Below are positions 6,129 to 60,000 of a DNA stretch of 60,000 nucleotides, piece after piece. Position 1 is the first letter of the stretch, and each line of letters starts with the position of its first letter. The translations under genes were made by a program, and so were the position numbers. The notes below the pieces were generated by a model. That model saw nothing but the letters and a program-made list of their open reading frames with translations. It was not told the origin of the DNA and searched no databases. Origin of the DNA: Mobula hypostoma (taxonomy: Eukaryota); the NCBI RefSeq assembly GCF_963921235.1, contig NC_086107.1:107572001-107632000 (forward strand), given 5' to 3'.

Positions 6129-7870
6129 CATAAGACATGGGAGCAAAATTAGGCTATTCAGCCCATCGAGACTGCTCCGCCACTCCATCGTGGCTGATCC
6201 CAGATCCCATTCAACCCCGTACACCAGCCTTTTCGCCATATCCTTTGGTGCCCTGACTGCTCAAGGAATGATAGACTTATGCCTTAAATATACCCAGGGA
6301 CTTGGCCTCCACAGCAGTCTGTGGCCGAGCATTCCACAGATTCACTACTCTCTTGCAAAAAAAAGTCCTCCTTACCTCTGTTCTAAAAGGTCACCCCTCA
6401 ATTTTGAGGCTGTGCCATCTGGTTCTGGAAACCCCCACCATAGGAAACACCCTCTCCATATCCATCCTATCTAGTCCTTTCAACATTCAATACATTTCAA
6501 TGATATCCCTCCCCACCCCCTGCAAAGCTGCCAAATGCTCCTCATATGATAACCCCTTCATTCCTGGAATCAACCTTGTGAACCTCCTCTGGACTCTCTC
6601 CAATGACAACACATCCTTTCTGAGAAATGGGTCCAAAACTGTTGACAATACTCCATCCTGACTAGCGCTCAGCATTATCTCCTAGCCTTTATATTCTATT
6701 CCCCTTGAAATAAATGCCAACATTGCATATGCTTTCTTTACCACAGACTCGACCTGGAAATTAACCTTTTGGGAGTCTTGCACGAGGACTCCTAAGTCCT
6801 CCTTCACTTTTGATGTTTGAACCTTCTCCCCATTTAGATAGTAGCCTGCACTGTTGTTCCTTTTACCAAAATGCATCATCATACATTTTCCGACACTGTA
6901 TTCCATCTCTCACTTTTTTTGCCCGTTCTTCCAATTTGTCTAAGTCCTGCTACAATCGCATTGCTTCCTCAGCACCACCTACCCCTCCACCTAAATTGGT
7001 ATTATCTGCAAATTTTGCCACAAAGCCATCTATTCCATTACCCAAATCATTGACAAACAATGTGAAAAATAGTGGTCCCAATACTGACCCTGAGGAACAC
7101 CACTAGTCACTGACAGCCAACCAGAAAAGGCCCCTCTTATTCCCACTCGCTGCATCCTGCCTGTCAGCCATTCCTGTATCTATGCTAGTATCTTTGCTGT
7201 AATGCCATAGGATTTTATCTTATTAAGCATCATGTGTAGCACTTTATCAGATGCCTTCTGAAAATCCAAGTAAATGACAACCACTGCCTCTCCTTTGTCC
7301 GCCTTGCTTAAACTTCCCTTTACAGAACCATACTGACTTTGTTTTATTTTATCATTAGTCTCCAAGTACCCCGACACCTCATCCTTAATAATAGACTCCA
7401 ACACTTTCCCAACCAATGAGGTTAGGCTAACTGGTCTATAATTTCCTTTCTTTTGCCTTCCTCGCTTCCTAAAGAGTGGGGTGACATTTGCACACTTCCA
7501 GTCCTCCGGGACCATGCCAGAATCAAGTGATTCTTGAAAGATTATGAAAAATGCATCCATTATCTCTTCAGCAATCTCTCTCAGGACTCTGGGATGTAGT
7601 CCATCTGGTCCAGGTAATTTATCCACTGTAAGACCTTTGTGTTTGCCTAGCACTTTTTCCTGTGTAATAGCAATGACAAACACTTATGCTCCCTGGCACT
7701 TATGGACCTCTGGCACACTGCTAGTGTCTTCCAAGATGCAAAGTCCCATTAAATTCATCTGCCATTTCTTTGTCCCCTATTACTACCTCACCAGCATCAT
7801 TTTCCAGTGGTCCAATATCAACTCTCACTTCCCATTTACTCTTTGTATAACTGAAAAAAACTTGTTTTTT
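6129..7870 (-). mobile_element. CR1 LINE 3' portion inserted antisense into the previous CR1
   Basis: Minus-strand ORFs PGPDGLHPRVLRE..GNYRPVSLTS..YLDFQKA (7180-7683) and LERVQRRFTRLIPG (6487-6675). CR1 tail at about 6130-6170. Host CR1 sequence GATTCC is repeated at both junctions. Confidence 0.88.
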
Positions 7871-15785: not shown

Positions 15786-18355
15786 TGCACTCTTTGTGAT
15801 AGTTGAGTATACTCGTGTATCTTGCAGTCTGTGAAGAGAAGTATGTTATTACTTCTGTTGTGCTTTGCCAGTGCACAATGTTTTAACACATTTGTCCCTC
15901 AGGTGGCTTTAGTTCATGGGTTTTTTTTTTGTAATTTATATTTTATTGAATTTCATCATCAAAGAAACATTTCCATAAGATGTTTTTCAGATACTGTACA
16001 TAAATATCATATAATCATATTTGTCACAAATCTCCACGTAATATTTATCTGAGGTATATGCTTATAGAAAGGAGAGGAAAGAAAGAACAATCGAAAGAAG
16101 AAAACTATGTACAGAGTAGGAAGTGATCTTTTTTTGCAACATATTCATTGACTTGTGAGAATAAAATCAGGCCTATGAGGTGTTACGTAGTTAAACCATT
16201 TTTTCCAGTATAAATAAAATTGTTCCAACTTAATGATTAACAGATGCTGTTATCTTCTCCATTTTGTAAATGTCCATTGCAATTTCCATCCATACATTTA
16301 AAGTTGGGTTCTCCTGTGATAACCATTTCCTGGTAAGGGTCTTTTTACCAGCTACCAGCAGTATATTCATTAAATATTTATCTCTTTTCAACCATTCATG
16401 AGGTATATACCCAAATTAATGGTCTTACTCTCTAAGGGTATTTCACATTTAAAGATGTCTTGTAGGGCATTATGTATCCCACTCCAATAGTCTTTGATAA
16501 CGGGGCATTCCCAGAAAATATGATAATGGTTTGCATTTTGTTTTCCACAATTTCTCCAGCAAACAGGGGGGTTACTATCGTAATGGGATTTCTCAGAGGG
16601 TGTAATAAAATATCTTATCAAGTTTTTCCACCTGAACTCCCTCCATTTCTGTGAACTGGTACACTTCCATTGATACCTCCATATTATTGTCCTGTCTTCC
16701 TCCGATATTATTATCCCTCCTTCCTTCTCCCATTTTGTTTTAATGTATGAAGTCGAATGTGTTTTAAGATTTGACAAACCCTTATACACGCTTGAAATGA
16801 TTTTACTACCATTGTCTGAATTAAATGCTTTTCTAAATAGCTCTATCAGACATGTACTTGCCTTGGTTACATTTTTAACTGTCCTATTAACATACTGTCG
16901 CATCTGTAAATACCGGTAAAAGTCTTGTTTTTCTAATAAGTGTTTCTCTTTGAGCATTTCAAAACTGAACAGTGTTCCTTCTTTCATTATATTGCAAATA
17001 GCTGTTATTCCTTTAGCTATCCAGTCCTTAAATCTAGCATCCAGTTTATTCGGCGTAAAATCCGCGTCATATGCACACCATTTAAGAATTGCAATGTCTC
17101 TCTCTAGTTTATATTCTTTTATAATAGTTTTCCATATTTTAAGAGTCCATTTCACCCACGGGTTGTCACTTTTATTTGTGTAACTCTGTAGGTTGTTCTC
17201 AGCCATAATTGCCTGTATGGGGATGGAAAGTATCCTCTCCTCAATGTTTTTCCATTGAGCGTCATATGATGGGTTGCACCAGCATATCATAGCTCTCAAC
17301 TGTGCTGCAAAATAATAATCTCTAAGAGAAGGTAGGCCCCATCCCCCCTTTTCCTTGGCTAATTGCAAAGTTTTGAGACAAACCCTAGGCCTTTTACCTT
17401 GCCATATATATACCTTGATAGTATCTTATTCCATTCATTGAATTGATTTTGGTTAATCTCTATTGAAAGAGATAAAAACTGCAATTAGGGTCTGGGCAGT
17501 ATATTCATTTTAATAGATTCAATCCTTGAACTGAGACCAAGAAAAGGAATTAGGTTCCATCTTGTTATATCTTCCTTAATTTTTTTTACATATAGACTGA
17601 TAATTGCATTCTGATAATTTTGCCAAATCTTTTGGCATAATGGTGCCCAAATATTTGATGGACTCTGTTTGCCATGCCCAGGAATATCTACTTTCAATTT
17701 CTCTTGGTGGGCTATAGTTATATGAAAGTAGTTGGGTTTTATCTATGTTGATCTTTGTATCCTGATAATTGGCCATATTGTTCAAAGGATTGCATCAATT
17801 TGGGTAAAGAGTCTGTTGGTTGCCCTAGATAGATCTAAATGTCATCCGTGTAACAGGCCAATTTATGCTCTGCCCCTTTAATAGTAATTCCCCTGATATC
17901 TTCATTTTGTCTGATGTACTGAGCTAATGGTTTCAGATATAATGCGAAGAGTAGTGGTGACCATGCACAACCCTGTCTCGTGCCCCATTCTAGGAAAAAC
18001 TATTAGATAAATATCCATTGATTTTAATCCTGGCAGTAGTGTCGTATAGTGCCTGTATAGTTTTAATAATTGTGTCATGTAGACCAAATCTATGTAAAAC
18101 TCTATAAAGAAAATTCTAATTAGCCGAATCAAATGCCTTTTCAGCATCCACTCTTATCACTATTGCTTCAATTTCATTTTTTTTATATGATCAATAATGT
18201 GAAGTGTCCTTCGTATATTGTCTTGAGTTTGGCGTTGTTGTATGAAACCTGTCTGATCATTATGTATCAGTGTGGGTAGAAACTCTTCTAATCGTTTGGC
18301 AATGATGGAGGTAAATATTCTATAATCCACATTAAGAACAGATATTGGTCTAAAT

Positions 18356-19137
18356 CAGCGGTCCCCAACCACCGGACCGCGGACCGGTACCGGGCCGTAA
18401 AGCATGTGCTACCAGGCCACGAGGAAACGATATGAGTCAGCTGCACCTTTCCTCATTCCCTGTCATGCACTGTTGAACTTGAACACAGGGTTGCCAACTG
18501 TTCCGTATTTGCTGGGACATCCCTTATATTGGGCTAAATTGGATTTGTTCCATATGGGACCGCCCTTGTTCCGTTTTTCCCCTGCTAAGGTAGAGCGTTC
18601 CTATGAAACCTTTCGTGATGAAATGGTGTAAAGCGAAGAAGCAATTACCAGTAATTTATATGGGAAAAATTTTTGAGCGTTCCCAGACCCGAAAAATAAC
18701 CTAACAAATCATACCAAATAACACATAAAACCGAAAATAAATAACACTAACATATAGTAAAAGCAGGAATGATATGATACACAGCCTATATAAAGTAGAA
18801 ATAATGTATGTACAGTATAGTCGGGAAGATGAAGGCAAAACCGATTTGTGGGAAAAAAAAATCGACACGTACGCGCATGTGCACATCACATGCGCTTATG
18901 GTGCCCGCGCAAGGCTTCATGGTCATGGTAGTCTTCCTTGGTGTAAAGTGTCCCGGGATTTGACTTCTACTTTTGTCCCTTATTTGGGAGTGAGAAAGTT
19001 GGCAACCCTAACTGTAAAAGACATGTTAAGGTGAGTTTAACCCTACTTGAACACACCCCTCCCCCCCGTCAGCCGGTCCACAAGAATATTGTCAATATTA
19101 AACTGGTCCGCAGTGCAAAAAAGGTTGTGGACCCTTG
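18356..19137. mobile_element. hAT (Charlie-type) MITE inserted into L1 ORF2
   Basis: TIRs CAGCGGTCCCCAACC / GGTTGTGGACCCTTG. 8-bp TSD GTCTAAAT (18348-18355) / GTCTAAGT (19138-19145) with the central TA typical of Charlie targets. Confidence 0.9.
18486..19045. mobile_element. Second hAT-type MITE nested in the Charlie MITE
   Basis: Perfect 8-bp TSD CTTGAACA at 18478-18485 and 19046-19053. Left end CAGGGTTGCCAACT. A full inverted copy AGTTGGCAACCCTA ends at 19010 and a short AACCCTA ends at 19045. Confidence 0.8.
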
Positions 19138-21153
19138 GTCTAAGTGACCCAAATTCCATTTTATCCTTGCCTTCTTTCTCTGTAGCTGAGATTATCGCCT
19201 CCTTCTAGCTGGGTGGCATTTACGCCTTTCTCAGGGCCCAGTTCAGTGTGGGGAGTAAAATAGGAATTAACTCACTTCTAAACTCTTTATACCACTCTGC
19301 CGTATATCCATCTGATCCTGGTGACTTGCTTAATTTAAGCCTACTAATTGCAGTTTTTAGTTCAGCTTCAGTTATGTCAGCAGTCATCTTTCTATTTTGT
19401 TCTTTGCTTAAAGTGGGTAACTCTAAAGAATTCAGGAAGGTGTCAATTTGGGTTAAGCTTCCCCCTGGAACTTTGGAATTATAGAGTTTTGTAAAACAGT
19501 TCAAAAGCTTCATGAATTTCACTTAGCTTTTTTTAAATCACTTTTGTTCTTGGATCTCTAATTCTATGAATTGTATTTTCTGCTATCTTTTTTTCAGTTT
19601 CCATGCCAGTATTTTCATAGATTTAGATCCACTTTCATAGTGTCTCTGTTTCAGGAACATTAATTTTTTTCTAATTTCTTGTGTAGCCAAACTATTAATT
19701 TCATTCCTAATTTTTTTAGTTTCCTCTAGTATATCCTGTGCCAAACTCAAGTTATGTTTTTTTTCTAGTTCCTTCAGCTTATTTTGTAATTCCGCTAATG
19801 TTTTATTCCTTATTTTTTTCTTCTATGACGATATCACTATAATTTTCCCTCTTAAGACAGCCTTCAGAGTATCCCATAGAATGGGAGGTGAAACCTCTCC
19901 ATTATCATTGAATTCTAAGTAAAGACCAATTTTTAAAATTTGTTCCTTAAAATAGGGATCATTGAGTAGACTTGCATTTAGTTTCCAAATAGTAGTCTTT
20001 GGTTGTAGGTCAAAATCAACAGATAAATATATAGGTGCATGGTCACTTACATCTATTGTCCCAATTCCACGGGTGATTATTTTGTGTCTATCTTTTCCAA
20101 ATGTTATGAAATAGTCCATTCTTGTATATACGGAATTGGGGTCAGAATAATGAGTGTAATCCCTTCTGTCGGGGAAAAGGTCCCTCTATATATCAATTAG
20201 ACCAACATTCTCAAAAAGAGTGTTAACTTTCTTATGTAAGGACTTTGTTTCATAAGTTTTTCTATTGGAAGAGTCTAACTTTGGTTGTAATTTTAAATTT
20301 AAGTCTTCCCCCACATATCAAAAGACCTTCTGTTTCCGTTACCATAATATTAGTAATTTTCTGGAAGAAACTAATATCACTTCCTGGGAGTGCGTATATA
20401 TTCAATAAAGTAACTGGATTTCCATCTATATTCCCCCTTACCAGACTATATCTGCCCTCCTTATCTCCCATTTCGAATACTTTTTCAAAATTTAGCTTAC
20501 TTGAGATGAGAATAGCAACTACTCTTCTATGTCCTGATTTATATGAGGAGAAAAACAAATTAGTGAAGCCCATTCTCTTTAATTCCATTCCATGCTCATT
20601 ATCACTTAAGTGAGTTTCCTGTAAATATACTACATGGGCTTGTACTTTTTTCATTTTTGGTAGAATTTTACTGCGCTTGACTAGATTCAACAGCCCATTG
20701 ACATTAAAAGAAATAAATTTTACTTTGTCCTTAGCCATGTGTATTTATCTGTTAGTATATCATTGAAATTTGCAGAATATAATTTAATCGATCTACTCCC
20801 TGAACAGATAAGAGCCAAGAAACATGAATAATTTTAAAAAAAGGTAACGAAGGTGTGATTCCAAGGCTGGGGTCTCTAGATGACCTGGGTTGAGCTAAAA
20901 GAGACGTCTAGCCGTGGGGGATAGCCCCTCCTACCTGTGAGTTGAGGGCCCCCGCTGCAGTACCTATGAAAGTAAGTAGAAAAAAATCTATGTCCATTAC
21001 ACAGAAATGATTTCCTTGTGTATTCCTCCCATGTATATATTCTCATTTAGGTGGGGAAAAAGGAATAAATGAATGAATTTTAAAAAAATTGAGTAATATA
21101 AAGTCCACATTATAATACGTATTTCTTGATATAGGTATATCATCATCTATTTT

Positions 21154-21380
21154 ACAACCAGAGAGTGGTGGATATATGGAATGCTCTGCCCCAGAAGGCT
21201 GAGGAGGCCAAGTCTCTGGATGCTTTCAAGAAAGGGATGGATAGAGCTCTTAAAGATAGCGGAATCAAAGGTTATGGGGATAAGGCGGGAACTAGATACT
21301 GATTGTGGATGATCAGCCATGATCACAGTGAATGGCGGTGCTGGCTCGAAGGGCCGAATGTCCTACTCCTGCACCTATTG
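21154..21380 (+). mobile_element. 5'-truncated CR1 3' end inserted in the L1 inter-ORF region
   Basis: CCAGAGAGTGGTGGATATATGGAATGCTCTGCC..GAAGGGCCGAATG..CTACTCCTGCACCTATTG, with TCTATTTT on both flanks. Confidence 0.88.
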
Positions 21381-21545
21381 TCTATTTTTGCTTCCGTTTA
21401 GTTTCTCAGCACTTTTAAAGTTAGCCAAACCGTATGGCTCTTCTGGAGGAGGTGAGGGCTGCCCTCGGAGAACTCACAGTCTCTTCCTAATATCCTTCTC
21501 TCGTACTGTTCCGGTCCCTTGGTTTCTTGGTTCTCTTACTATTTC

Positions 21546-22298
21546 CTAAGCAGATCGGGATAACTGCTCAGCCAGACTTTCCCTTGGTTTGACCACGCTA
21601 ATGGGCAGTCCTCTGTTATTCATGTCTGTAGTCGCCTCTTCCACCGTCTGATATAGCTGTATCCCTTGGTAAAATACCCTCAGTTTAGCAGGGTATGGGG
21701 TTTGGAATTTAATCTTTTCTTGCTTTAATATTCGTTTTGCTTCGGAATATTCCTTCCATTTCTGTAGGACTGCCGGGCGGTAATCATGATCGAAGTATAT
21801 TAACTTCCGGTTCCAAGACACCCTCTTCATACCCCAGGCCCTTTGTAGAATCTCCGCCTTGCTCTTGAATTGAAGGAATTTAAGTACTACTGAGCGCGGT
21901 TTACTTTGTCTGTCTCTGGGAGGCCGTGGGACAACTGAACGATGCACCCTCTCAGTTTCAATCTCCATAGTCTGGGGAATCTCCAGCGCTTCTCGCAGCA
22001 GCTTGTCTACAAAGTCTATCATGGGCAATCCCTTCCCTTTGGGAACATTATAAGTCCTGATATTTTTCCGTCACGATCTTCCCTCCTGGTCAAGCAATTT
22101 ACTTTCCTGTTGATTTAATGTTTTTATAGTCCTACTTAGTATCTGTTCCACTTTTTGCACGCGATCTTCCACCTTCTCAATTCGAGTCTCTGCCACCACT
22201 ATTTTCTGATTGATGTTGGCGAGCTCTGACTTTATATCATTGAGTTGCTGTTTTATATCTTTTTGGACTTTCCTTATCTCTTCCAGAATTTTTATCAT
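21546..22298 (-). pseudogene. L1 ORF1 (coiled coil plus RRM/CTD), frameshifted
   Basis: Coiled coil ..AETRIEKVEDRV..LDQEGRS (22071-22298), then ERVHRS..PRSVVLKF..IYFDHDY..YPAKLRV (21546-22028), typical of fish L1 ORF1p. Confidence 0.9.
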
Positions 22299-25164: not shown

Positions 25165-26335
25165 ATACAAATTACAACGGGAGATAGAAAAGGCATGTAA
25201 AAAGGCCAATGTTACAATATTCATGGGGGAATTTCAATACGCAGGTAGATTGGGGAGAATCAGGTTGGTGCTGGATCCCAGGAGGGAATTTGTAGAATGC
25301 CATCAAATTGGCTGCTGGTGACTAGTGGTCGTGTTGTGACCGCTTCATTTCACGTTATATATCAATGATTTGGATGATTGAGTTGGTGGCTTTGTGGCCA
25401 AGTTTGTGGATGATACAAAGATCGGTGGAGGGGCAGGTAGTGTTGAGGAAGCAGGAAGTCTGCAGAAGGATTTAAACAGATTAGAAGACTGGGCAAAGAA
25501 GTGGGGGATAGAATATAGTGTAGGAAATTTTATGGTCATACACTTTGATAGAAGGAAGGTGTAGACTATTTTCTAAATAGGGAGAAAATTCAGTAATTAG
25601 AGATACAAAGGGACTTGGGAGGCCCTGTGCAGGATTCCCTAAAGGTTAGCTGGCAGGTTGAGTTGGTAGTGAGGAAGGCAAATGCAATGTTAGGATTCAT
25701 TTCAAGAGGAATTGGATATAAAAGCAAGGATGTGATGCTGAGGGTTTACAAGGTACTGGTCAGACCACAGTTTGAGTGTTGTGCGCAGTTTTGGGCCCCT
25801 TATCTAAGAAAAATATTATTGGCATTGGAGAGGGTCCAGAATGGCATTGGAGACGGCCCAGAGGAAGTTCAGAGAATGATCCCGGGAATAAAAGGATTAA
25901 TGTATGAGGAGCGTTTGATGGCTCTGGGCCTGTATTTGATGTGGTTTGGAAGACTGATGAGGGATCTTATTGAAACCAATCGAATATTGAAAAGCTTAGA
26001 CAGAGTGGATGTGGAGAGGATGTTTCTGATAGTGGGGGAGTTGAGGACCAGAGGGCACAGCCTCAGACTTGAGGGGCATCCATTTAGAACAGAGGTGAGG
26101 AGGAACTTCTTTAGCCAGTTTGTGGTGAATCTGTGGAATTCATTGCCACAGGCACTGTGGAGGCTGAGTCATCGAGTATATTTAAAGCAGAAGTTGATAG
26201 GTTCTTGATTGACCAGGTTTAAAAGTAATGTGGAGAAGGCAGTAAAGTGGGGTTGAGAGGATAATATGTCAGTCATGATGAAATGGTGGAGTAGATGTGA
26301 TGGGTCAAATAGTCTAATTCTGCTCCTTATGGTTT
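25165..26335 (+). mobile_element. CR1 LINE fragment (short endonuclease piece joined to RT C-terminus and tail), preceded by a hAT MITE end at 25123-25163
   Basis: ORF 25615-26208 KANAMLGFISRG..YKVLVRP..TRGHSL..RRNFFSQ..VVNLWNSLP, with the CR1 tail near 26310-26335. CAGGGGTTCCCAACCTGG at 25123. Confidence 0.88.
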
Positions 26336-28589: not shown

Positions 28590-29540
28590 TGTCAGGTGCT
28601 GTTTATTGATTACATCTCAGTGCTTGACACCATCACAGCCTTAGTATTAATCAACAAGCTCCAAAACCTGGGCCTCTGTACCTCTATCTGTATCTGGATC
28701 CTTGACTTCCTCATTGGGAGATTATAGTCAGTAATAACATTACATCTTCGCTGAATGACAATCAACATTGTGCATCTCAAGGATGTGTACTTAGTCCACT
28801 GCTTTACTTTCTCTATACCAGAAATTTCTAACCTTTTTTTATGCTGTGGATCCCTACCGTTAACGGAGGGTCCGTGAACTCCAGGTTTGGAGTACCTGCA
28901 CTACACCCACAAATGTATGGCTAGTCACAGCTCAAACACCTTCTGTATATTTGCCAAATGCACAACTCACAACTATTGTTGCCAGAATTTCAGATGATGT
29001 GGAGGAGGTGTACAAGATTGAGATAGATCAGCTGGTTGAGTGGTGTCGCAACAACAACCTTGTATTTAACATCAGTAAGACCAAGGAACTGATTGTGGGC
29101 TTCAGGAAGGAAATGTAGAGGGAACACATATCAGTCCTCATCAGGGGGATCAGCGATGGAAAGGGTAAGAAGTTTCAAGTTTCTGATTGTCAACATCTCT
29201 GAAGATCTATCCTGTGCCCAACATATTGATGCAACTATAAAGAAAGCATGACAATGGCTATATTTTGTTAGGAGTTGGAAGAGATGTGGTATGTCACTAA
29301 AGACTTATAAAATTTTATAGATGTACCATGGAGAGCATTCTAACTGGTTGCATCACCTTTGGTATGAAGGGACCACTGCACAGGATTGGAAAACGCAGCA
29401 GATTTGCAAACTCAGCCAGCTCCATTGTGGGCACAAGTCTCCCTAGCACTGAGGAGATTTTCAGAAGGCAGTGCTTCAAAAAAGTGGCACCCATCATTAA
29501 GAAACCCCATCATGACCCTCTTCTCATTGCTTCCATCAAG
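28590..29540 (+). mobile_element. Rex1/Babar-type LINE RT fragment
   Basis: ESILTGCIT..SIVGTSLPSTEEIFRRQCFKK (29328-29597). Same family as 27165-27950. Confidence 0.82.
28819..28898. mobile_element. 80-bp hAT (Charlie-type) MITE
   Basis: Degenerate TIRs CAGAAATTTCTAACC / GGTTTGGAGTACCTG and imperfect 8-bp TSD CTCTATAC / CACTACAC. Its right end matches the reverse complement of the fragment at 25123. Confidence 0.65.
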
Positions 29541-31075
29541 GAGGACAACTACCCTCTGTCTTCTATGGGCAAGCCAGTTCTGAACCCAAACGGCTAATTT
29601 CCCATGCATCTTAATTTTGTGGATGAGCCTCCCATGAGTGCCCTTGTCAAACAGCTTACAAAAATCCACATAGACGACATCCGCAGCTCTATCTTCAACA
29701 GTCACCCTCGTCACCTTGTTAAAAAACTCAATCAAGTTAATAAGACACAACTTGCCCTGCATAAAGCCATGCTGGCTCTTCCTAATTAGGATGTTTTCCA
29801 AATGTTCATAAATCCCATCCTTAAGAATCCTCTCCAGTAACTTTGCTACCACTGATGTGAGACTTAGCAGTCTAAAGTTTCCAGGATTATCCTTTGTTCC
29901 CTTATTGAATAATGGAACAACATTAGCTACTTGCTAGTCCTCTGGGACCTCACCTGTGGCTTGAGAGGTCACAAAGATATTAGTCAAAGCCCCCAGTAAT
30001 CTCTTGCTTCTCTCAATAATCTGGGTTATATCTCATCAGACCCTGTGAACTTACCTAGCCTATTGCTCTTTTAGAGGCCCAACATTACCATCTCCTTTAT
30101 GTTGAAATGCCCTAGCACATTAGTTTGCTTGACACTGATCTAACTATCCTCCACTTTCTTCTAGTTGGTAAATACTGATGTATTTATTAAGGTCCGCACC
30201 CATATCCTCTGCATCCAAGCAAATGTTCCCCCCCACCTTTTACCTTAGTGGTCGTACTCTCTTCCTAGTTTTCCCCTCGCTCCTGAGTATCTGTAGAATG
30301 TCTTGGGATTCTCTTTAATTTTACTTGCCAAGGACTTCTCCTGGCCCCTCCTGGCTTTCATAATTCCCTTCTTGAGTTCTTCTGTGGCTTCTTTATAATC
30401 CTCAAGGCCTCTGTTTGATTTTAGCTTTCTAAGCTGTAATACTTATGCTTGACTCTTCTTGACTAAATTAACCATCTCTTTTGACATCCAAGGTTCTCTT
30501 ACCTTACCATCCTTGTCCTTCTGACTGAAACATACCTGTCCTGTACTCTGTCCAGTTGATCTTTAAGCACCCTTCACATGTCAGATATTGGCTTGCCCAA
30601 AAACAGCTGTTCCCAATTAACTCTCCTCAGTTTGTGCTCTCGTAATGCTCTCATTACTTGCTCTGCTCCAATTTAATACTCTCCCACGAGGTCCATACTT
30701 AACCTATGTTAAAACTTAAAAGAAATTGTGGTCACTGTTCCCTAACGGTTCATCTACTGAAAAGTCAGTCACCTGGTCTGGCTCGCTACTTACCACTAGG
30801 TACAGTACAGCCCCTCCTCTTACTGGGCTATCTACATTTTGATTAAAAAAAAAACCTTCCTGAATGCACTTAACAAATTTTCCCCATCTAAATGTTTTGC
30901 TTTAAGGTAGTTCTAGTTTATATTAGGTAAGTTGAAGTCTCCCATGATAACAACCCTATTTTTACACCTTTCTTAATCTACTGCATATCTGTTCCTTAAT
31001 ATCTGGGTGGCTACTGGGGTGGTGGGGGGGTGTTGTAGTACAATTCCATCACAGTGATTGTATCCTTCCCATTTC
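29540..31075 (-). mobile_element. Decayed CR1 LINE (endonuclease to RT)
   Basis: ORF 29412-29852 KLLERIL..SQHGF..CLINLIEFF..DVVYVDF.KLFDK..W..NWL..RRQRVV. Boundaries are approximate. Confidence 0.85.
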
Positions 31076-34034: not shown

Positions 34035-36072
34035 AGAAACATAGAAACATAGAAAATAGGTGCAGGAGTAGGCCATTCGGCCCTTCGAGCCTGCACCGCC
34101 ATTTATTATGATCATGGCTGATCATCCAACTCAGAACCCCGCCCCAGCCTTCCCTCCATACCCCCTGACCCCCGTAGCCACAAGGGCCATATCTAACTCC
34201 CTCTTAAACATAGCCAATGAACTGGCCTCAACAGTTTCCTGTGGCAGAGAATTCCACAGATTCACCACTCTCTGTGTGAAGAAGTTTTTCCTAATCTCGG
34301 TCCTAAAAGGCTTCCCCTCTATCCTCAAACTGTGACCCCTCGTTCTGGACTTCCCCAACATCGGGAACAATCTTCCTGCATCTAGCCTGTCCAATCCCTT
34401 TAGGATCTTATATGTTTCAATCAGATCCCCCCTCAATCTTCTAAATTCCAACGAGTACAAGCCCAGTTCATCCAGTCTTTCTTCATATGAAAGTCCTGCC
34501 ATCCCAGGAATCAATCTGGTGAACCTTCTTTGTACTCCCTCTATGGCAAAGATGTCTTTCCTCAGATTAGGGGACCAAAACTGCACACAATACTCCAGGT
34601 GTGGTCTCACCAAGGCCTTGTACAACTGCAGTAGTTACTCCCTGCTCCTGTACTCGAATCCTCTCGCTATAAATGCCAGCATACCATTCGCCTTTTTCAC
34701 CGCCTGCTGTACCTGCATGCCCACTTTCAATGACTGGTGTATAATGACACCCAGGTCTCGTTGCACCTCCCCTTTTCCTAATCGCCACCATTCATATAAT
34801 AATCTGTTTTCCTATTTTTGCCACCAAAGTGGATATCTTCACATTTATCCACATTAAATTGCATCTGCCATGAGATTGCCCACTCACCCAACCTATCCAA
34901 GTCACCCTGCATCCTCTTAGCATCCTCCTCACTGCTAACACTGCCACCCAGCTTCATGTCATCTGCAAACTTGGAGATGCTGCATTTACTTCCCTCATCC
35001 AAGTCATTAATATATATTGTAAACAACTGGGGTCCCAGCACTGAGCCTTGCGGTACCCCACTAGTCACCGCCTGCCATTCTGAAAAGGTCCCGTTTATTC
35101 CCACTCTTTGCTTCCTGTCTGCTAACCAATTCTCCACCCACACCAATACCTTACCCCCAATACTGTGTGCTTTAAGTTTGCACACTAATCTCCTGTGTGG
35201 GACCTTGTCAAAATCCTTTTGAAAATCCAAATATACCACATCCACTGGTTCTCCCCTATCCACTCTACTAGTTACATCCTCAAAAAAATTCTATGAGATT
35301 CGTCAGACATGATTTTCCTTTCACAAATCCATGCTGACTTTGTCCGATGATTTCACCGCTTTCCAAATGTGCTGTTATCACATCCTTGATAACTGACTCC
35401 AGCAGTTTCCCCACCACCGACGTTAGGCTAACCGGTCTATAATTCCCCGGTTTCTCTCTCCCTCCTTTTTTAAAAAGTGGAGTTACATTAGCCACCCTCC
35501 AATCCTCAGGAACTAGTCCAGAATCTAACGAGTTTTGAAAAATTATCACTAATGCATCCACTATTTCTTGGGCTACTTCCTTAAGCACTCTAGGATGCAG
35601 ACCATCTGGCCCTGGGGATTTATCTGCCTTCAATCCCTTCAATTTACCTAACACCACTTCCCTACTAACATGTATTTCACTCAGTTCCTCCATCTCACTG
35701 GACCCTCTGTCCCTTACTATTTCTGGAAGATTATTTATGTCCTCCTTAGTGAAGACAGAACCAAAGTAATTATTCAATTGGTCTGCCATGTCCTTGCTCC
35801 CCATAATCAATTCACCTGTTTCTGTCTGCAGGGGACCTACATTTGTCTTTACCAGTCTTTTCCTTTTTACATATCTATAAAAGCTTTTACAGTCCGTTTT
35901 TATGTTCCCTGCCAGTTTTCTCTCATAATCTTTTTTCCCCTTCCTAATTAAGCCCTTTGTCCTCCTCTGCTGAACTCTGAATTTCTCCCAGTCCTCAGGT
36001 GAGCCACTTTCTCTGGCTAATTTGTATGCTTCTTCTTTGGAATTGATACTATCCCTAATTTCTCTTGTCAGC
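34035..36072 (-). mobile_element. Young 5'-truncated CR1 LINE (near-intact RT), inserted into older Penelope/CR1 debris
   Basis: ORFs 35280-35810, 34778-35263 and 34131-34625 with [27 protein letters not shown] and LYKALVRPHLEYC. 3' tail (AGAAACAT)n at 34035-34055. Confidence 0.96.
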
Positions 36073-50432: not shown

Positions 50433-53400
50433 AAGCTTCAGCATGACAAAGGAATAGCTGATGTTTTGGGTCAAGACCTGATTCTGCTGATGCTGACTGA
50501 CTGGAGTTCCTCCAGCAGCTTTTTTTCTTGCTCCTGATTCTTGCATCTGCAGTCTTGTGTTTCCAATAAACATTGTGACCTGATAAAGAATTAGATTGTG
50601 AGATCGTTCCAGATGGCATTGCATTAATATTTTATTTACAAAGTTTATAATTCGATTATGTCCAAATAGAAATGCGAGCTTCATTCTAGATTAAATGTGG
50701 GTTGGAGCTTGCACATGTTCAGCTGAGTGATTATATCCAATCAGGCAATATTTGTTACTCAGCTTGGTTGACATTTACACTTGCCCTCCATTTCTAAAAA
50801 ATCTTTAGTTAGTGGTGATTTAATTATTTATTTCCGGTGTGGTTTTTTTTGCATTCTTCACATAACATCAAAGGTAGAATTCTATTAGGTTATACATTGG
50901 TGGGCAATCCTTCAGTGTCCAGCAGTATGTGGTTAACTCGATAATCAGTAACTTGAATTTTATGCATTTCTTATTTCCCCTTTATGTGAAACTGGGGCAG
51001 GTTTATTACAGTAGGAAATGGAAAGAGTACTAACATTTAATCACTCAACCATGATTGATATCATTGCAGCTTCTTATAAGTATTTCTGCTTCTTAAAAAT
51101 ATGCGACCAAGAAGAAGGCTCTTCTACCTGTTGTTTTTGTAGTAGCTGTTTGAAAGTGCTATTCAATTAGGCCCTGTGGTACTCATTGCTCAGTAGCTAA
51201 TATCTCTACTGCACCATATTTATCAAGTTGCCTTTTGGAAGTTATTACTGAATCAGTTTTGTTCTTTTAGTGTTACAGATCATTGTAATTCACTACAAAT
51301 AGAAAAATAATGTTCCTCTTCTCCCCCCTCTCTCCCCCCCCCCATTTTTTAATTCTTTCTGGAATTTTCAGCCTTGTGCTTCCCCATACTAATAACAATA
51401 CATTTACTTTAGTACAGCAATGGTCCTCCGGGTGAATCATAAGTTCTGTTGAGTATGCAGAAAGAAATATTTCTCTGGCATTGTGGTACCTTATCGATTT
51501 CCTCAATTTAAAAGAAAAACAAAAAATGCTGGAAAACTCAGCAGGACGGGCTCTGGAAAGAAACAGTCAACATTTTGCTTGTGCAACCCTGAGAAAAAAA
51601 GAGAGACACGTTTTCAGACAAAAAGGTAGGGGAAGGAAAAGTACACAAAGGGAATGTCTGTGATAGGAGGACTCAAATATTTCGCCTCAATTTAATTTCT
51701 CCTAGCAGCACTTAGTTATCAAAGATGATCTGTAATTTGGAAAATAAGAGCCTAACCTCACTGAATTTCTTTGAGTCGTTCACAAGGATGGATACAATTA
51801 GTATGAATTGGCTTCATTGTAACAACTTTTAGGGTAGATTGGATTACTGGCCAACAAACGCACTGCATCGTGTGATTATAATTCCTTTCGAAAGTGTTGC
51901 TCAATGAAGGTTTTAACAGTGGTATAGCTTTGACAAGTTCCATGCGTACTTTAGTCCAACAATTATATGTTTCTTTGCTGTAATAATTACAATTTCACTG
52001 CACATGCCAAAGTTCAAAGTAAATTTATTATCAAATTACATGTGTCACTATATAAAACCCTGGGATTCATTTTCTTGTGGGCATACTCAGTAAATCTATA
52101 GATTAATATCCATAATAGAATCAGTGAAAGACTGCCCATTTAGGGCATTCAACCAACATGCAGAAGACAAAAAACTTTGCAAATACAAAAACAGGAAATA
52201 ATACTATCAAATAAATAAATAAATAATAAGCTTTGCCTCCAAGTTGATGTGAGGGAAGGGCTCACGCCACCAGGTTCAGGAAGTTATTACCCCTCAACCA
52301 TAAGGCTCTTGAACCAAAGGGGATAACTTCACTCAACTTTACTTACATCTGCTAGACTTTGATCTATGTTTGAATATCTTGTGCACTGTTATTGGAGATC
52401 TTCTAAGCTTTTCAACCTCCTTGATTTGAAATCAAGGTGGATTTTATTGATTTTTACCTTTATTACTATGTGGTCATTACTATATATGACATTAACCACA
52501 CCTTGTCCCATTTTCTCTTTACTATTTTTCTGTAATGATTCATAAGCAAAAACTGAACAATTAATTTTCACTTTTTCCTAGCTGCTTATTGGTTAAGTAG
52601 TTCAGAGTAACAAAAATTAAAGGAATTGGAGACAGGGAACTAGCTGTATCTACTGGATTGAATTGAGTAGTAATTGCTTTATGGACCAACATTGATATGC
52701 CTGTTGATTGGTCTCGGAGGCAGAAACAACACTGGTGGTTCTCCTGTGACAATGGAAAGCCATTAAGGGTACTCTGGGAAGATAGATGTATACAAATGAA
52801 TCCCATTTTTATTTTATTCTGAGGGTGGAAATATCTTGGGTTACTGCTCCAGCTCTCAGATGCTCTTATTGTGCTCTGCAAGCATGCATACTTGGAGGAT
52901 GTATTGAACTTTGCTGAAAATCTGATGTTGCTACTCCATCCAGTTTCTGAGGTAATGAATAGCATCTTAATCACGTTAATAGAGAGGAGTTGAGTGGTTG
53001 ATGTCTGTGCAACTGTAGGACAAAATTGCATTTAGGGAAAAAAAATTTCTCAGATTGGCAATGTACCTGTCTTGGATCGATATGGGTATTGCTTACATTC
53101 TGGGATTCTGGAATTTATCTATTTGAAATCAGGGTTTACATGCCAGAAATTTGGTAAAAAACTGGTCACTAAGGCAAAGACAGGCCACTCACCACATTGC
53201 TTTAGCTTGCCTTTGTATTTTCTAACTAGGTTCTCCTCCTATTTGAGCTGATGCAGCCTTTTCAGTCTCCTTGCTCGGCTGTATCTGGCCGCTGCTGATA
53301 CATTCTAAGCATTAGGTAGTCAGTTTGCACATTTGTGTGGGTGTGAGAGAGCTGAGGTTTGATTATGTGTTGCAAAGTTTAGCAGATCTGGGATTAATCG

Positions 53401-54555
53401 GCCCTAAACATCAACTGTACTTTTTTCCATAGACGCTGCCGGGCCTGCTGAGTTCCTCCAGCATTTTGTGTGTTGCCTGGTAAAATAAAGAGCTGGGTTA
53501 GTGCAAAGAGAATGATTTTGAAGAACCTAGGTTAAAGTTTGGAGTTGGCTCATTAATTTGATGTAGAGGCTGGTTTGGTTGTGAAGGCATCAATCTGATA
53601 CTGACTGCAGACAGTTTCATTCCAAATAAACTAGAGTCTGCTTCGTTGCTACTGTTTTGTTCAGTTGTTAAAAGTTAAGATTATTTAAATAGGAATCACA
53701 AAAAATTAATATGAGGATGTCAGAAATAAGAAATAGGTTATTTTTGCACTACTGTACATTGGTATACATAACGGATCAAACAGTTGATTCTGAACAGAAG
53801 TGGAAAGTTAAATGGCTAAAGGTTATAAAATAAAATTAAAAGATGGCTTATGACTTTTTTCTTAAATGCATCAATTAAATATTTTTGTGCTAACCAGTGA
53901 GATGGTGAATGATCGGCAATAACCTTTTTACTACTGTTGTTTAATGAGTCAACGTTATAGGAAAAAATTCAGCAACAGTTACAGTTTGAAGAATTACTGC
54001 TGTGCTTCAGTTTTTGAAGGATTTTAAAGTGATTTAGTTATTGCAATTCAAGACTAAATTTATTGCTGGTATTCTAGAGCAAGCTGATGAAATGGAAGAT
54101 GTGCCCACCAGGATTGTAAATGTCTTTAATTCCGTTTGCTCACTCTTTATGAACCCTTATCTGGATTTGTGTTCAGAGTTTCACTTCTCGTAGCAAACAC
54201 ACAAGACCTGTTGTGAGCTGCAGCAAGGTCACCAGATGGGACTAGGTTTCTGTTTTTAGTTGTTATGACATTAGTTTTCCTGAGAGGATTTGGTATAAAC
54301 TGTAGAGCTGGGGAACCAAAGTCACTACTGGTACCAGTAAAAATACACAGATGCTTCTCTTTCCCTTAAGAAAGTAGCTGGGTTTTATAGCATTTCTGTA
54401 ACTTTCAGTTTGTTTCGCTCTTGCGATCGTCAGCAGTGTACCAATTACTTAACAGTTTCAAAACTAGTTTTTGAAAATCAGGACTATGGGGTGATAGTTT
54501 AGTCCTTGTCTCCTTCTTCCACAGGTTACAGAATGTTTTGCTTATATTCAAATTG

Positions 54556-54822
54556 AGCAGCACTGTAGCGTGGTGGTTAGCACAACACTTTACCAGTAAT
54601 CCAGGTTCAGTTCCTACTGCTTCTGTAAGGAGTTTGTGCATTCTCCCCATAACCACATGGGGTTCCTTTGGATACTCTGGTTTCCTCCCACTGTCCAAAG
54701 ATGTAACCGGTTGGCAGGTTACTAGGTCATTGTAAATTGTCCCATGATTAGGCTAGGGTTAAATTGAGGGATTGCTGGATAGTACAGCTTGAAAGGCCAG
54801 AAGGACCTATTCCGTACTCTTT
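54556..54822 (+). mobile_element. HE1/V-SINE-like tRNA SINE with CR1-type tail
   Basis: A box TAGCGTGGTGG, B box GGTTCAGTTCC, V-domain-like GGATACTCTGGTTTCCTCCCACTGTCCAAAGA, and tail GGCCAGAAGGACCTATTCC. A similar decayed copy lies at about 36770-36990. Confidence 0.8.
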
Positions 54823-54942
54823 AATTTTTTAGAAAAAAAGTTATTTGATTGCATAGTCTATGTAGGACCTACGATTACCCCCAAAGGTGTGTGTTTATGT
54901 AAGTGAGGAAACTTTACGTGTTAACTTGGTTAAATTGGTGAG

Positions 54943-55960
54943 ATGGAGCCACCAGTTGTGAAAGGTGGAAACTGACTGGACAGTTTGAGACGCCAGAGTA
55001 GGGGCGTGTATACTCGTTTGGGGAGATATCTCAGGGAGAGGTTTTATCCAGATAGATCGGCCAGGATGGCACCTATAGAGGTCAGGCAACGTCAGGTTGA
55101 GAACCCTGATGATCCGAGGCAGCCCTTGACCTTGATTACGACTATTCATAAGCCCTTCACCCCTGGGGAGAAACAGCATCTTGTCTGAGTTGCTCTCACT
55201 TAAAGTCACCTGTGGGAATTCAAAATTCTGGCACAAGCTCGAGGAAATTGTTGAAATTCACCAGATGTACCCTAAAGATATACATGCGTTAGTAAAAGCA
55301 AAATGCCCAAAATGCCCGAGGAATATGTGGGACAGGATGGCCCAGGCGGTGCAGGATGGTACATGGGCAACTACCTGGAGTGCCAGTAATGAAGAAAGAT
55401 ATCACTCTTTTAAAGGGGAAGTGAGGCAGTGGCTGGGGGGAGGCAACAGTAGCTGGGGAACGATAATGGCAGTGATTCAAAAAGCTGACGAGACAGCCAT
55501 AGATTATGCGGAACGTAAATATCGAACATATGAGGAGTATTCAGGGTTGGATAATCCCGGAAGAGATGACCCAGTCTTCCTAAAAATGCTGAAGGAAGGC
55601 CTGAGCTCAGCCTACCAGGAAGTTGTAGATTTAGGCGTAACGGTGGGGTCCAACTACTCTGCGATAGTTTTGTGGGCCAGCGAGATAGACCAAAGAAAAG
55701 GCAAGAGAAATCGTGAAGTGGGTATAGTGGGTGCAGCTGTTACGATGACACAGGGTTTGTTTTAGGTGCCAACAACCAGGGTACCTAGCAAAGGACTGCT
55801 GGACCAAGTATAAGACAGTGAAGGAGTTGATATGCTACAACTGTGGCCTATCGGGATGTGGTTGGAGACAGTGTCCAAAAGGGAGGGGGGAAAACCCAGG
55901 CGAAGGTCACGGCGGACACCCAGTCACTCACCCCATCAGCAACCAGTCTAACTGTTGATC
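54943..55960 (+). pseudogene. gag: Retroviral gag (short MA, CA with major homology region, two zinc knuckles), decayed
   Basis: ATG 54943 (GAGATGG, in-frame TAA upstream), one TGA and two frameshifts. MHR-like QKADETAIDYAERKYRTYEEYSG. Knuckles CFRCQQPG(Y)LAKDC (from 55758) and CYNCGLSG(C)GWRQC, each with the His lost. Confidence 0.88.
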
Positions 55961-56029
55961 AGATCAAAGAGCTAGTAATGGCGCCTCTTAGGGCAGGAAA
56001 AGATGTGGCATCGGGCTCCACTGCCAGCG

Positions 56030-56340
56030 CTGGTGACCCACGGATGTACACAACGACATTGTTAGGGGGAAGGCAATGCAATACGTTAATAGCACGGGCA
56101 TCGGTATTGATATCAGGTTTACCCTTACCAACAACCGGACAGGCCAGTTATATCAGGGTTGTAGGAGGGAAAACAGTAAAAGTAGAAAGAAGCGAGTGGC
56201 AAATACTAGAAATCGGGGGAGTGCAGCTTCCAGTGTATTTCTGGGTATGTCCAAATAATGAGGGCATGATCCTTGGAATAGAAATCCTAAGGGAAGCAGG
56301 AGCTGTTATAGATTCAGGAAAGGGAGAAATAATATGGATG
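56030..56340 (+). pseudogene. pro: Retroviral aspartic protease (catalytic DTG damaged)
   Basis: GDPRMY..LGGRQCNTLI-ARAS (eroded LIDTGAS), flap IRVVGG, and C-terminal ILGIEIL..GAVID. Confidence 0.82.
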
Positions 56341-56779
56341 AGTCAGGGGCAGCGAATGCATACAGCCAACAGAATACACAACCTGCCTAGCATAGTCACA
56401 GCCGCCCGGATTATCAGAGACTGCATCCTGGATGGGGTCTATGGGTTACCTTGTCAGCAGTTCTCATCTGTGTGGGCTAGACACAGGCAAGATTGTGGGC
56501 AGGTAAAGATAGACCCAGTTAAAATAGATGGGGACCTGCATAAGCCGCCTAAGCAGGACCCTATACAAACTGATACACTGACCGCTGATCAGGGTATAGT
56601 GAAGGAGCAAAAACACCAGGGGATACTCAGAGAGACTGCAGCCACTCCAGAACATAAAGTTTTCCCAGTTCCTCCGAGGGCAGACATTACTGCAAATAAG
56701 GCAGCAGGGGAACTAGAGGCAATTGAAATTGCAAGTGTGCAGGAGGAAACAGCAGAAGCCAGCTTAGTAAAATTATATG

Positions 56780-57890
56780 AAGAGGTAGAGGCAGAAGAGA
56801 CGGAAAAATGGAGGAGAAAAGGAGCAAAGGAGGGACCAGATGGGTGCTGGACACATGGGGAGGAAAGAGTTGTGGTGGCTCCACCCTGTATTAGACAGAT
56901 ACTAAAGTTATTATCATGGAGTGATGCATCAGGGAAGGTAGAGCATGATCACAACCCTCCGGCAGGACTGGTGGTGGCCAGGGATGGGCGGGGATGTTTA
57001 GAAATTCTGCTACTGTTGTATCATTTGTGCTCAGCATATCCCTGGTAAGGGCAAAAAGCTACAGCTGGCAAATCAGCCTCGGCCGAGGGGACCCTGGGAA
57101 AACATCCAGATAGACTTCACAGGGCCCCTGCCAAAAAGCAGGGGGAAAAGCTACTGTTTAGTAATTATGGATCACTTCACCCGGTGGGTAGAGGCTTTCC
57201 CAACTGCACCGCCCGCACCGCTGCATGGATCCTAGTTCAGGAAATCCTCCCAAGCTGGGGAACCCCAGTTCAGGTGGATTCAGATCAGGGAGCACATTTC
57301 ACAGGGAAAGTGATGAAGGAAATGTGCCGACTGCTAGGGATTCGACAACGGTTCCATGTACCCTACCACCCCCAGGGTTCAGGGATGGTAGAAGGGATGA
57401 ACCGAACAATCAAGAATGCGTTAGCCAAAGCTATAGCTGAGACAGGAAAGACATGGGTTGATGTACACCAGGAATCCTGATGAGATTGCGTCCAACCCTG
57501 AACCGCACATTGGGTTTTAGCCCCTACGAATTATTGATGGGGTGAGCAATGCAACTCCCCTATGGGGTAATTACGGGTTGTGGAGAGCCTGGGGCTTACA
57601 GGGATAGAATGACCCAATATGTGAAAGACCTTTGTAACCAACTTAAAGTGTTGAAGGGCCGAGTGAAAAAACAGCAGCGAATGGTTGATCAGAGAGAGCC
57701 AGGGGGAAAGGGGACAGTCCTTCTACAGCCCAGTGACCAAGTTATGGTGAGGGTGCTGCCAGAAAGGCCAGGGTTTGCCTCCAGGTGGATAGGACCGCAG
57801 ACGGTACTCTTAACCAATGATACGTGTGTCTGTGTGCAGACTCGGCGAGGTAGCCAGTGGAAACACTGGACCCAGGTTAAAGCATACAAC
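56780..57890 (+). pseudogene. Retroviral integrase (HHCC, DDE, GPY-like CTD) with stops and frameshifts
   Basis: YHGVMH..WWWPGM..C..CIICAQ; GPWENIQIDFTGPLP..MDHFTRWVEAFP; VDSDQGAHFT; HVPYHPQGSGMVEGMNRTIK; GFSPYELL; RWIGPQTVLL..WKHWTQVK. Confidence 0.93.
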
Positions 57891-58756
57891 TCGCCCTCTT
57901 GTTGCTCCCACAGACTGAGCGGGGGACCAAGTGTACCCAGTAACCATGTAATTACAGGGAACCTAAGAGAAGAACACCAGCCGGCCATGCCAGACCTGAC
58001 CACTGCTGATGAAAACGTACTCGGAGGAAACGCAAAGGCAGAAAACGCCGAGAGCGTGGCAGAAGACACTGAGAGCGTGTTGGAAAATAATGAATAGCCT
58101 GCTAAAGTGTGATGATAATGGTACTCTGTAAAGAAGGCTGGTTGCTGAAGGTAGATGATTAATTTTATAGCATAGTATAGAAAATTATTCGAAAATAGAT
58201 GTGGGGGGATTTTTAAGTTAAAGCAGAGATGGCAAGTTCCACCAATTCGATGGCATTTCGGACTGCACACGGCATCTGAAAGCAGTCACCCCCAGTCTGA
58301 GGAGCTGGGCCCTTTTCAACAGTTGGGCCAGTGATCGACCGGACAGTTCGGAAGGGGGTGCCACTGGGGAGAGGTCCTTGCAGACATTTACGTAGAGGCC
58401 ACCCCAACCCCTTCCTGTACATCGAGAAGGCCTGTGGGTGCTCCTGGAAGAAGAGTTTCAGCGACCAGAGGATGAAGGGCTGAAGACAAAGGAATGTGAT
58501 TAAGCTGCAGTCAACCTGCAGGCAGAGAGCTGACAGGCACACGATAGGAGCCGCATTTTCTAAAGACTTGGAACAGCCTCTCTGCTTAACATTTGGTAGG
58601 TAGCGATTAGAGAATGCTCGGATAGATATTGAGTCGCACAAAATTGGCGGGGGGGGGGTGGGAATTTCGAGACAGGGCGTTTTTGCTGCCCTATTTGAGC
58701 AGATCCTCCTAGATTGGCCTTTCCTGGTACAAATTTAATTTTTGTCCAGGAGGGCC

Positions 58757-58768
58757 AAGAGGAGGGAC
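58757..58768 (+). promoter_or_regulatory. Polypurine tract
   Basis: AAGAGGAGGGAC immediately precedes the TG of the LTR. Confidence 0.8.
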
Positions 58769-59337
58769 TGTTACAGTGAATTTTTGGATAGATGATTCAC
58801 TTACACTTAAATGACTTTGGCTCTATTTGACAAAGTAATGTGGATTGAGTTCACAAAAATGCATTTCCTAAAAGCTGTGAATATCAGAATACTAGCCAGG
58901 TGCTGCGGATGGAAGTGTGAAGTTTACAGGTAGTTTCGAAGACAGCCTTATCTATACTTTATAAATATGAATTGTCCTCTGTGTTAGCACGTAAAATACC
59001 AAATAAATGTATTGTGGATTTAACTTGCATTCCTAAAGGCTGTGAGCACCATCCAGACATGGTGGGCGTCAGGAGGAAAGGATGAAGTCAGAAGGTGTGA
59101 TGTTTTGTATGTAGCTTCAAAAGAAAGCATTGTCTATGCATTGTCTATAACCTTGTAAATAGGAATTGTCCTTTGTGTTTAGCAAATAAATATCGAGCCC
59201 ACATTGGGCTAGCAGACCTTTCTACCGAAAGCGTCTCCGTCCATATGATGCCTGCTGTACCTTGTTGTGTGGAATAAAGAAGCTGCTTTGTATCTACCAG
59301 TAACTCTGTCTCTGGTGATTTCATCCACGTTACTACA
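58769..59337 (+). repeat. 3' LTR (569 bp)
   Basis: Begins TGTTACAG after the PPT, has AATAAA at 59273-59278, and ends ..GTTACTACA (TG...CA). No second copy was seen in the window, so the right end is inferred from motifs only. Confidence 0.75.
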
Positions 59338-60000
59338 TTCTTGGGCTGCTTCTGCTTTTGCATAGCATCCACGTGCTCCTTGCAAAGATGCTTGCTACCT
59401 TTCTGGACATTTCCCCTCAGTTGAAGTGGCTGTGGATAAGTGAGGGTGTTGCATTTTTCAGAGAGGCTTTGAAAATATACTGGAGATAGCTCTGCCATAA
59501 CAGATTTCCAGCAATGCACTAACAGTAAGTTATCTGATGTGGGAGTCTGAATATTAGTTTAGTTTGTAAACCATGTGGCCCAATGGAGATCATTGAGTGT
59601 AAGTATAGCCTTGATACTAATGGCATTGGCCTGGGGGAGAAAATGCTGATCGATTTGAAGGACTTCAGAGTTTTGGTGTAATTTCTTGTGTTCTGGGGTG
59701 GCTGAAGGAGATGAACTATGTCTCTAAAGCACTTGGGAAGATGGAATCAATGCTTCATTTGTAGACCATAATTCTTCTGTCGGATTGGAGGTCTTGGATT
59801 GGTTCATTATTTTATTAATTGATTGCCAGAAGTCTATCATTGGCTGTTTCAGTACTGCTTTGGCTTCACCTCTTCACTGTTGTAATGTTTAAAAGCAGGA
59901 AATTCTTGGTGGTATCTGTTCAGGATGTGGCTCCTGCATGTAAGCAACAACCAAAAGAAGTGTGTTTTTATCCAAGAATTGTGTGCTGTTCAATTACATT

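Follow-up and report, generated by a model that had tools for sequence, protein, structure and literature searches.

In the element described here, the core of the reverse transcriptase (RT), the tether and most of the RNase H are missing from pol, and this deletion, at positions 56671-56677 of the window (the whole stretch of 60,000 nucleotides of DNA that was analyzed), is real and in frame. Judged from its sequence, the element itself is an env-less endogenous retrovirus (ERV) of the Retroviridae. On balance, and by no means with certainty, we favor the view that this copy is the relic of a non-autonomous ERV subfamily devoid of RT, whose deletion would have occurred in a replicating template and whose shortened RNA would have been copied by the RT of a helper. 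The features on which our analysis relied are collected in Table 1.

Table 1. Positions in the window of the parts of the element and of the repeat adjoining it.
Feature	Position	Strand	Evidence or remark
High-copy short repeat, SINE-like (label inferred)	54560..54830 (ends approximate, by eye)	+	Immediately 5' of the element
gag in several frames: capsid-like part, two CCHC knuckles, both damaged	55066..55895	+	tblastn
Aspartyl protease region	56035..56331	+	83% identity with P0001 across 114 aa
RT N-terminal lead-in, up to the first RT motif (..VFPV)	56461..56676	+	L004 pol up to aa 223; P0002, P0010, P0011
Join, in frame; no RT core or tether, RNase H mostly missing	56671..56677	+	Split-point scan
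Last RNase H helix and linker before integrase	56677..56886	+	In the frame of the protease; L004 pol aa 768-835
Integrase, HHCC, D-D-E and C-terminal domain	56909..57881	+	Pfam rve E 1e-6, IN_DBD_C E 3e-4
Polypurine tract	58757..58767	+	11 purines; a single base separates them from the LTR
3' LTR, 569 bp, TG...CA ends, AATAAA at 59273	58769..59337	+	Sequence and contig depth

A tblastn search of the whole 60 kb with the pol protein of an intact relative yielded matches at 56035-56670 (protease and RT lead-in) and at 56912-57881 (integrase), and none to the RT core or the RNase H core anywhere in this stretch. The position of the join is the optimum of a split-point scan against the pol protein of the relative L004: the sequence to its left aligns with aa 12-223 and that to its right (56677-56883) with aa 768-835, both in one and the same native frame, and 544 aa of L004, corresponding to about 1.6 kb, are skipped. 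The right-hand alignment has a score of 65 that was equaled by none of 300 shuffles; shuffles were clearly exceeded with L004 and L005 only, four more distant pol proteins giving either no signal or a marginal one. The LPQG, YCDD, DGS and TDS motifs of L004 pol are all located inside the skipped segment, and neither LPQG nor YxDD was found by a motif scan in any of the six frames between 54000 and 60000. The preliminary description of this DNA had reported the absence of these two RT motifs, the loss of a kilobase-scale segment and a join that keeps the frame, and it was correct in each of these points. Its statement that no RNase H motifs occur in any frame holds for the acidic motifs, which are part of the skipped segment, but not for the last RNase H helix, which is retained. 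It had let RT end at about 56637, whereas RT homology extends to the ..VFPV motif and the join consequently lies ~40 nt further to the right; the first His of the HHCC motif is indeed found at 56915, 278 nt past 56637. PDB entry 7ksf matches the RT lead-in weakly (E 2).

The list of open reading frames in the window contains a frame of 405 codons on the + strand (55831-57048), which had initially been taken to lead from the protease through the RT lead-in straight into the pre-integrase linker. A single frame of this length does exist, but pol homology stops near 56890, and its final ~50 codons are off-frame relative to pol. The frame does not run into integrase, as the zinc finger is encoded in a different frame that is interrupted by stops at 56939 and 56999. 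Chance alone gives an in-frame join one time in three. Over 2,815 nt, 9 breaks were counted; a stretch of 1,014 nt free of them then has a P of about 0.18, and the long open frame therefore shows no special protection.

The initial view that protease and integrase have been kept is justified insofar as both regions are recognizable, but not with respect to their function. The catalytic D-T/S-G motif of the protease is absent from every + frame between 56000 and 56200, as judged by a motif scan, while the related protein P0001 matches Pfam RVP. The D-D-E motifs of integrase are present (57104, 57274 and 57379), and tblastn and motif scans revealed its coding sequence to be distributed among three frames; besides the two stops mentioned above, there is another at 57543. 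Across successive frames, the gag region is 77-85% identical to P0001 in tblastn alignments, and it matches P0011 (E 9e-39) and the gag protein of L004 (E 5e-8); comparison with P0001 showed that both zinc knuckles are damaged in this copy. The N-terminal 170 aa of P0011 have no counterpart upstream of gag, where scores of 33-40 correspond to background. The missing matrix-like N-terminus may reflect either a truncation of this copy or a trait of the family. The first piece of gag (55066-55185) begins with an ATG followed by PIEVRQ, and the matrix-like N-terminus of the relatives is missing upstream of it. By all of these signs, this ERV copy is dead and predicted to encode no working protein.

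The assignment to the Retroviridae is built upon the order gag-protease-(RT-RNase H)-integrase, with an HHCC and DDE integrase and with the RT core and most of the RNase H absent. A tether and a second RNase H in pol separate the Retroviridae from Gypsy elements. For the element studied here these parts can be traced through its relatives, as P0010 matches both RT_RNaseH_2 and RNase_H in Pfam, and of this second RNase H the final helix is preserved in the window. Neither a 5' LTR nor a primer-binding site was found, and the 60-kb window contains no second copy of the LTR and no recognizable target-site duplication. Searches with Rfam and ARAGORN gave no matches. At the 3' side, contig depth climbs over 58700-59355 and drops to 11-75 past 59356 in all four runs that were mapped to the window. 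A direct repeat of 53 nt is found within the LTR (58945-58995 and 59138-59190, 81% alike). The repeat upstream of the element reaches a contig depth of 216,000-873,000 in the bin 54600-54763, and all 24 listed loose ends fall into this repeat, at 54706-54778. Three env proteins used as tblastn queries found no match in the window, and the longest frame in the about 850 nt between integrase and the polypurine tract comprises 64 aa. ERVs without env are known (PMC6466679).

The closest protein, P0001, is assigned by its source to Mobula hypostoma, which makes a ray the likely host of the element; it is 77-86% identical, and its gag continues, without a change of frame, into a protease that is intact. 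Other related proteins were found in sharks, a teleost and turtles. Members of the clade that possess RT exist, one of them in a shark (P0011); those RT-bearing relatives that were found by protein search are only 25-35% identical, and none of them is close. Two of seven metagenome loci, L004 and L005, retrieved via the integrase core, carry an intact pol of 1,180 aa, fall into the same clade and match gag, protease, RT lead-in and integrase of the window; they apparently represent an intact member of this retrovirus clade. The two loci (L004:1112-6457 and L005:664-6009) are near-identical, and each has an open gag of 601 aa and an open pol that are separated by one in-frame stop.

In a tree of RT sequences with eight rows, none of them a foamy virus, L004, P0010 and P0011 group with L011, which we take to be the snakehead retrovirus, at 90/92 on a branch that is not starred; without an RT core, the window itself is not placeable in this tree. 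No branch is starred in the corresponding integrase tree. We therefore provisionally regard the relatives as snakehead-like (clade Huo, class III), with the window being placed indirectly through them. An epsilonretroviral origin was rejected, since L001-L003, presumably the walleye viruses, form a clade of their own (100/99) in the RT tree, without the relatives. Lokiretroviruses, which would be recognized by WNRCPFG/RCPFG in place of LPQG in RT and by an env resembling the paramyxovirus fusion protein, were rejected as well, as L004, P0010 and P0011 read LPQG and no env is present in the window. The cited part of a study on lokiretroviruses gives RCPFG in place of LPQG for three distinct sequences (PMC7947760). 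Snakehead-like ERVs have been reported in cartilaginous fish, as far as the cited sections of two studies go (PMC4422223, PMC6001957). Such ERVs (clade Huo; CmiERV lineage I of the elephant shark) resemble the element studied here in that its RT-bearing relatives group with L011, and they differ from it in that the window has neither env nor RT.

Is the join shared by other copies of the element? Contigs from four runs, representing four organisms, were mapped to the window at 80% likeness. Parts of the element are carried by 20 of the 23 listed runs, with at most 0.41 of its words found in any of them, and none of the 30 bins is left uncovered in any of the four mapped runs. Depth inside the element amounts to about 1,700-78,000 in comparison to 11-75 in the right flank; it is not a copy count, and these values fit a large multi-copy family in four organisms. 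A contig from another organism (X19 record 20) spans the join from 56297 to 56800, with 380 letters on its left and 124 on its right side, and is 84% like the window, differing from it 79 times in 495 letters and showing 15 gaps; its final 220 letters do not match the window. This divergence and the unmatched tail are more readily explained by a different insertion than by the same locus, and we infer that X19 record 20 is paralogous. It is the one piece that bridges the join among the 32 listed, out of 131,995. One contig of X5 joins 56271 to 56670, seemingly placing a few letters from the left of the join beside the RNase H tail; it falls below our 31-letter rule and gives a weak hint that this contig carries the join. 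The breakpoint is thus probably not private to this locus, as X19 record 20 crosses it, with orthology of that contig as the alternative. The earlier proposal of a replicating lineage without RT gains from this contig and from the deep coverage in all four runs, but with respect to the join it depends on one of 32 listed pieces. Members of such a lineage may have made Gag-PR-IN particles, as was also proposed, but the copy in the window is unable to do so, and no RT-bearing partner with the same LTR was found.

Searches centered on the join added little to this picture. None of 140 candidates was a protein spanning the join; among 4,055 candidates there was one match, restricted to the protease side. 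None of 12 representative protein matches had a best stretch that continued past the join to the right, and a further search for such a product gave one hit among 37, a distant integrase. Because genes are seldom predicted in decayed repeats, these negative outcomes of the protein searches carry little weight. Locus scans centered on the join returned none of 113 stretches from metagenome contigs and none of four from viral contigs; another scan confirmed one of two stretches and no locus. All matches of an atlas search were below 0.9 and serve as leads only.

The same observations can be read in a different manner. An ordinary provirus of an ancestor common to several ray species might have lost the 1.6 kb after its integration, with the frame being kept by chance, and the bridging contig would then be an orthologue of this locus. 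We judge this to be a serious possibility, albeit one that falls well short of being probable. It would agree with the join being bridged by only one listed contig, with the finding that the right flank is matched in all four runs, which means that the locus may be shared, and with the lack of the 5' end and the 9 breaks of this copy. The family moreover displays 1,223 joints over 54600-59500, including skips inside pol that measure 398, 510 and 892 nt; internal deletions are consequently common in it, and one more would not be special. However, a mismatch of 16% combined with the gaps and the unmatched tail of X19 record 20 would be high for the orthologue of a related ray, and depth does not dip in the bin that contains the join, although the latter observation weighs little.

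The preferred account of a subfamily without RT can be described as follows. The deletion would have arisen in a replicating template, and the subfamily would already have lacked RT when it was copied. The deleted RNA would have retained the LTRs and the polypurine tract, and it would have been packaged with the Gag-Pol proteins of a helper, whose RT would have reverse-transcribed it prior to integration of the product. Since the frame is preserved across the join, young copies may have been able to produce a Gag-protease-integrase protein in which both cleavage regions are intact, and this might have conferred an advantage in cis. The copy in the window would afterwards have lost its 5' end and gathered frameshifts and stops. 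Packaging, the borrowing of RT and any advantage in cis are suggested by what is known from other systems.

A more far-reaching version of this scenario strikes us as doubtful. It supposes that most copies never had RT, that a Gag-protease-integrase element made its own particles, integrated its own DNA and borrowed nothing but RT, and that, under selection, it came to occupy several ray species; this layout would have arisen independently in P0009, and parasitism for RT only would be recurrent in the clade. P0009 (538 aa) leads from a protease through an RT lead-in to integrase without a stop, has no Pfam match to RT or RNase H, and is 32% identical over the protease side. Its gap corresponds to aa 203-841 of L004, and the ends of this gap differ from those of the join in the window. 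P0009 may be the outcome of an independent loss of RT or an artefact of its gene model; when used as a query of genome contigs, it was found in none of 29.

Alternatively, the deleted form could have been spread by copying at the level of DNA, through segmental duplication, gene conversion or recombination between copies, and not by reverse transcription. The high copy number would offer many templates for conversion, and neither an intact pair of LTRs nor a target-site duplication is demonstrable for this copy; yet its flank gives no sign of duplication, with the depth of the right flank being low in all four runs, and we hold this route to be improbable. That the gap is an error of assembly in the source of the window is very hard to credit, given that an independent run from another organism contains a contig over the same join.

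Non-autonomous retroviral elements often lose all of pol, and the IAP 1-delta-1 element of the mouse is one that keeps integrase. In the cited part of the work on this element, a 1.9-kb deletion creates a gag-pol fusion, proteins of a helper are needed, and the fusion aids in cis (PMC6466679). On the same partial account, it resembles the element in the window as an env-less ERV with a deletion of similar size, one frame that leads into the end of pol, and gag and pol provided in trans. Its deletion affects both gag and pol, each of which is lost in part; in the window, by contrast, the gag and protease regions stay, and the cut begins at the first RT motif and reaches as far as the final helix of RNase H. 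The two also differ in clade and host, and IAP 1-delta-1 is active whereas the copy in the window is dead. Most copies of HERV-H carry deletions in pol, and its RTVLH2-like subgroup is comparable in its high copy number, shared pol deletions and frequent loss of env; several pol deletions occur there, and the sections of the source at hand describe no single protease-integrase join that keeps the frame (PMC6629862). Bik-1 and Bik-2 of the zebrafish, likewise non-autonomous ERVs of a fish, have kept coding sequence and presumably borrow enzymes from a partner, but according to the cited portion of that report they contain gag only and no pol, and they are lokiretroviruses, unlike the relatives of the window (PMC12067270). 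A helper-dependent lifestyle is therefore already familiar. For a ray, a clean layout of protease plus integrase is less usual: keyword matches in the open-access literature, a scope outside of which Repbase and Dfam lie, yielded no report of an ERV family in cartilaginous fish that lacks RT and keeps integrase.

If our preferred reading of an RT-less subfamily is true, an element that dropped RT and RNase H alone, with protease and integrase retained in frame, would show which enzymes are shareable in trans and which of them pay in cis. In the case of a large and old family present in multiple species, this would be testable by dN/dS alone. A family without RT would also escape those surveys of ERVs that screen with RT. 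Should the deletion be private to one locus, it would represent ordinary decay.

Other parts of the window contain further repeats, all recognized by eye. Frames resembling ORF1, the endonuclease and the end of ORF2 of an L1-type LINE occupy 16388-22070 on the - strand, and pieces like ORF2 of a CR1-type LINE are located at 5569-7683, 25597-26208, 29412-29933 and 34131-36071, with the CR1-like pieces making up the bulk of the repeats found in the window. Upstream of the element, two short AG...GT stretches on the + strand, at about 52866-52951 and 54081-54116, resemble host exons by eye; the element may consequently lie in an intron, in sense orientation.
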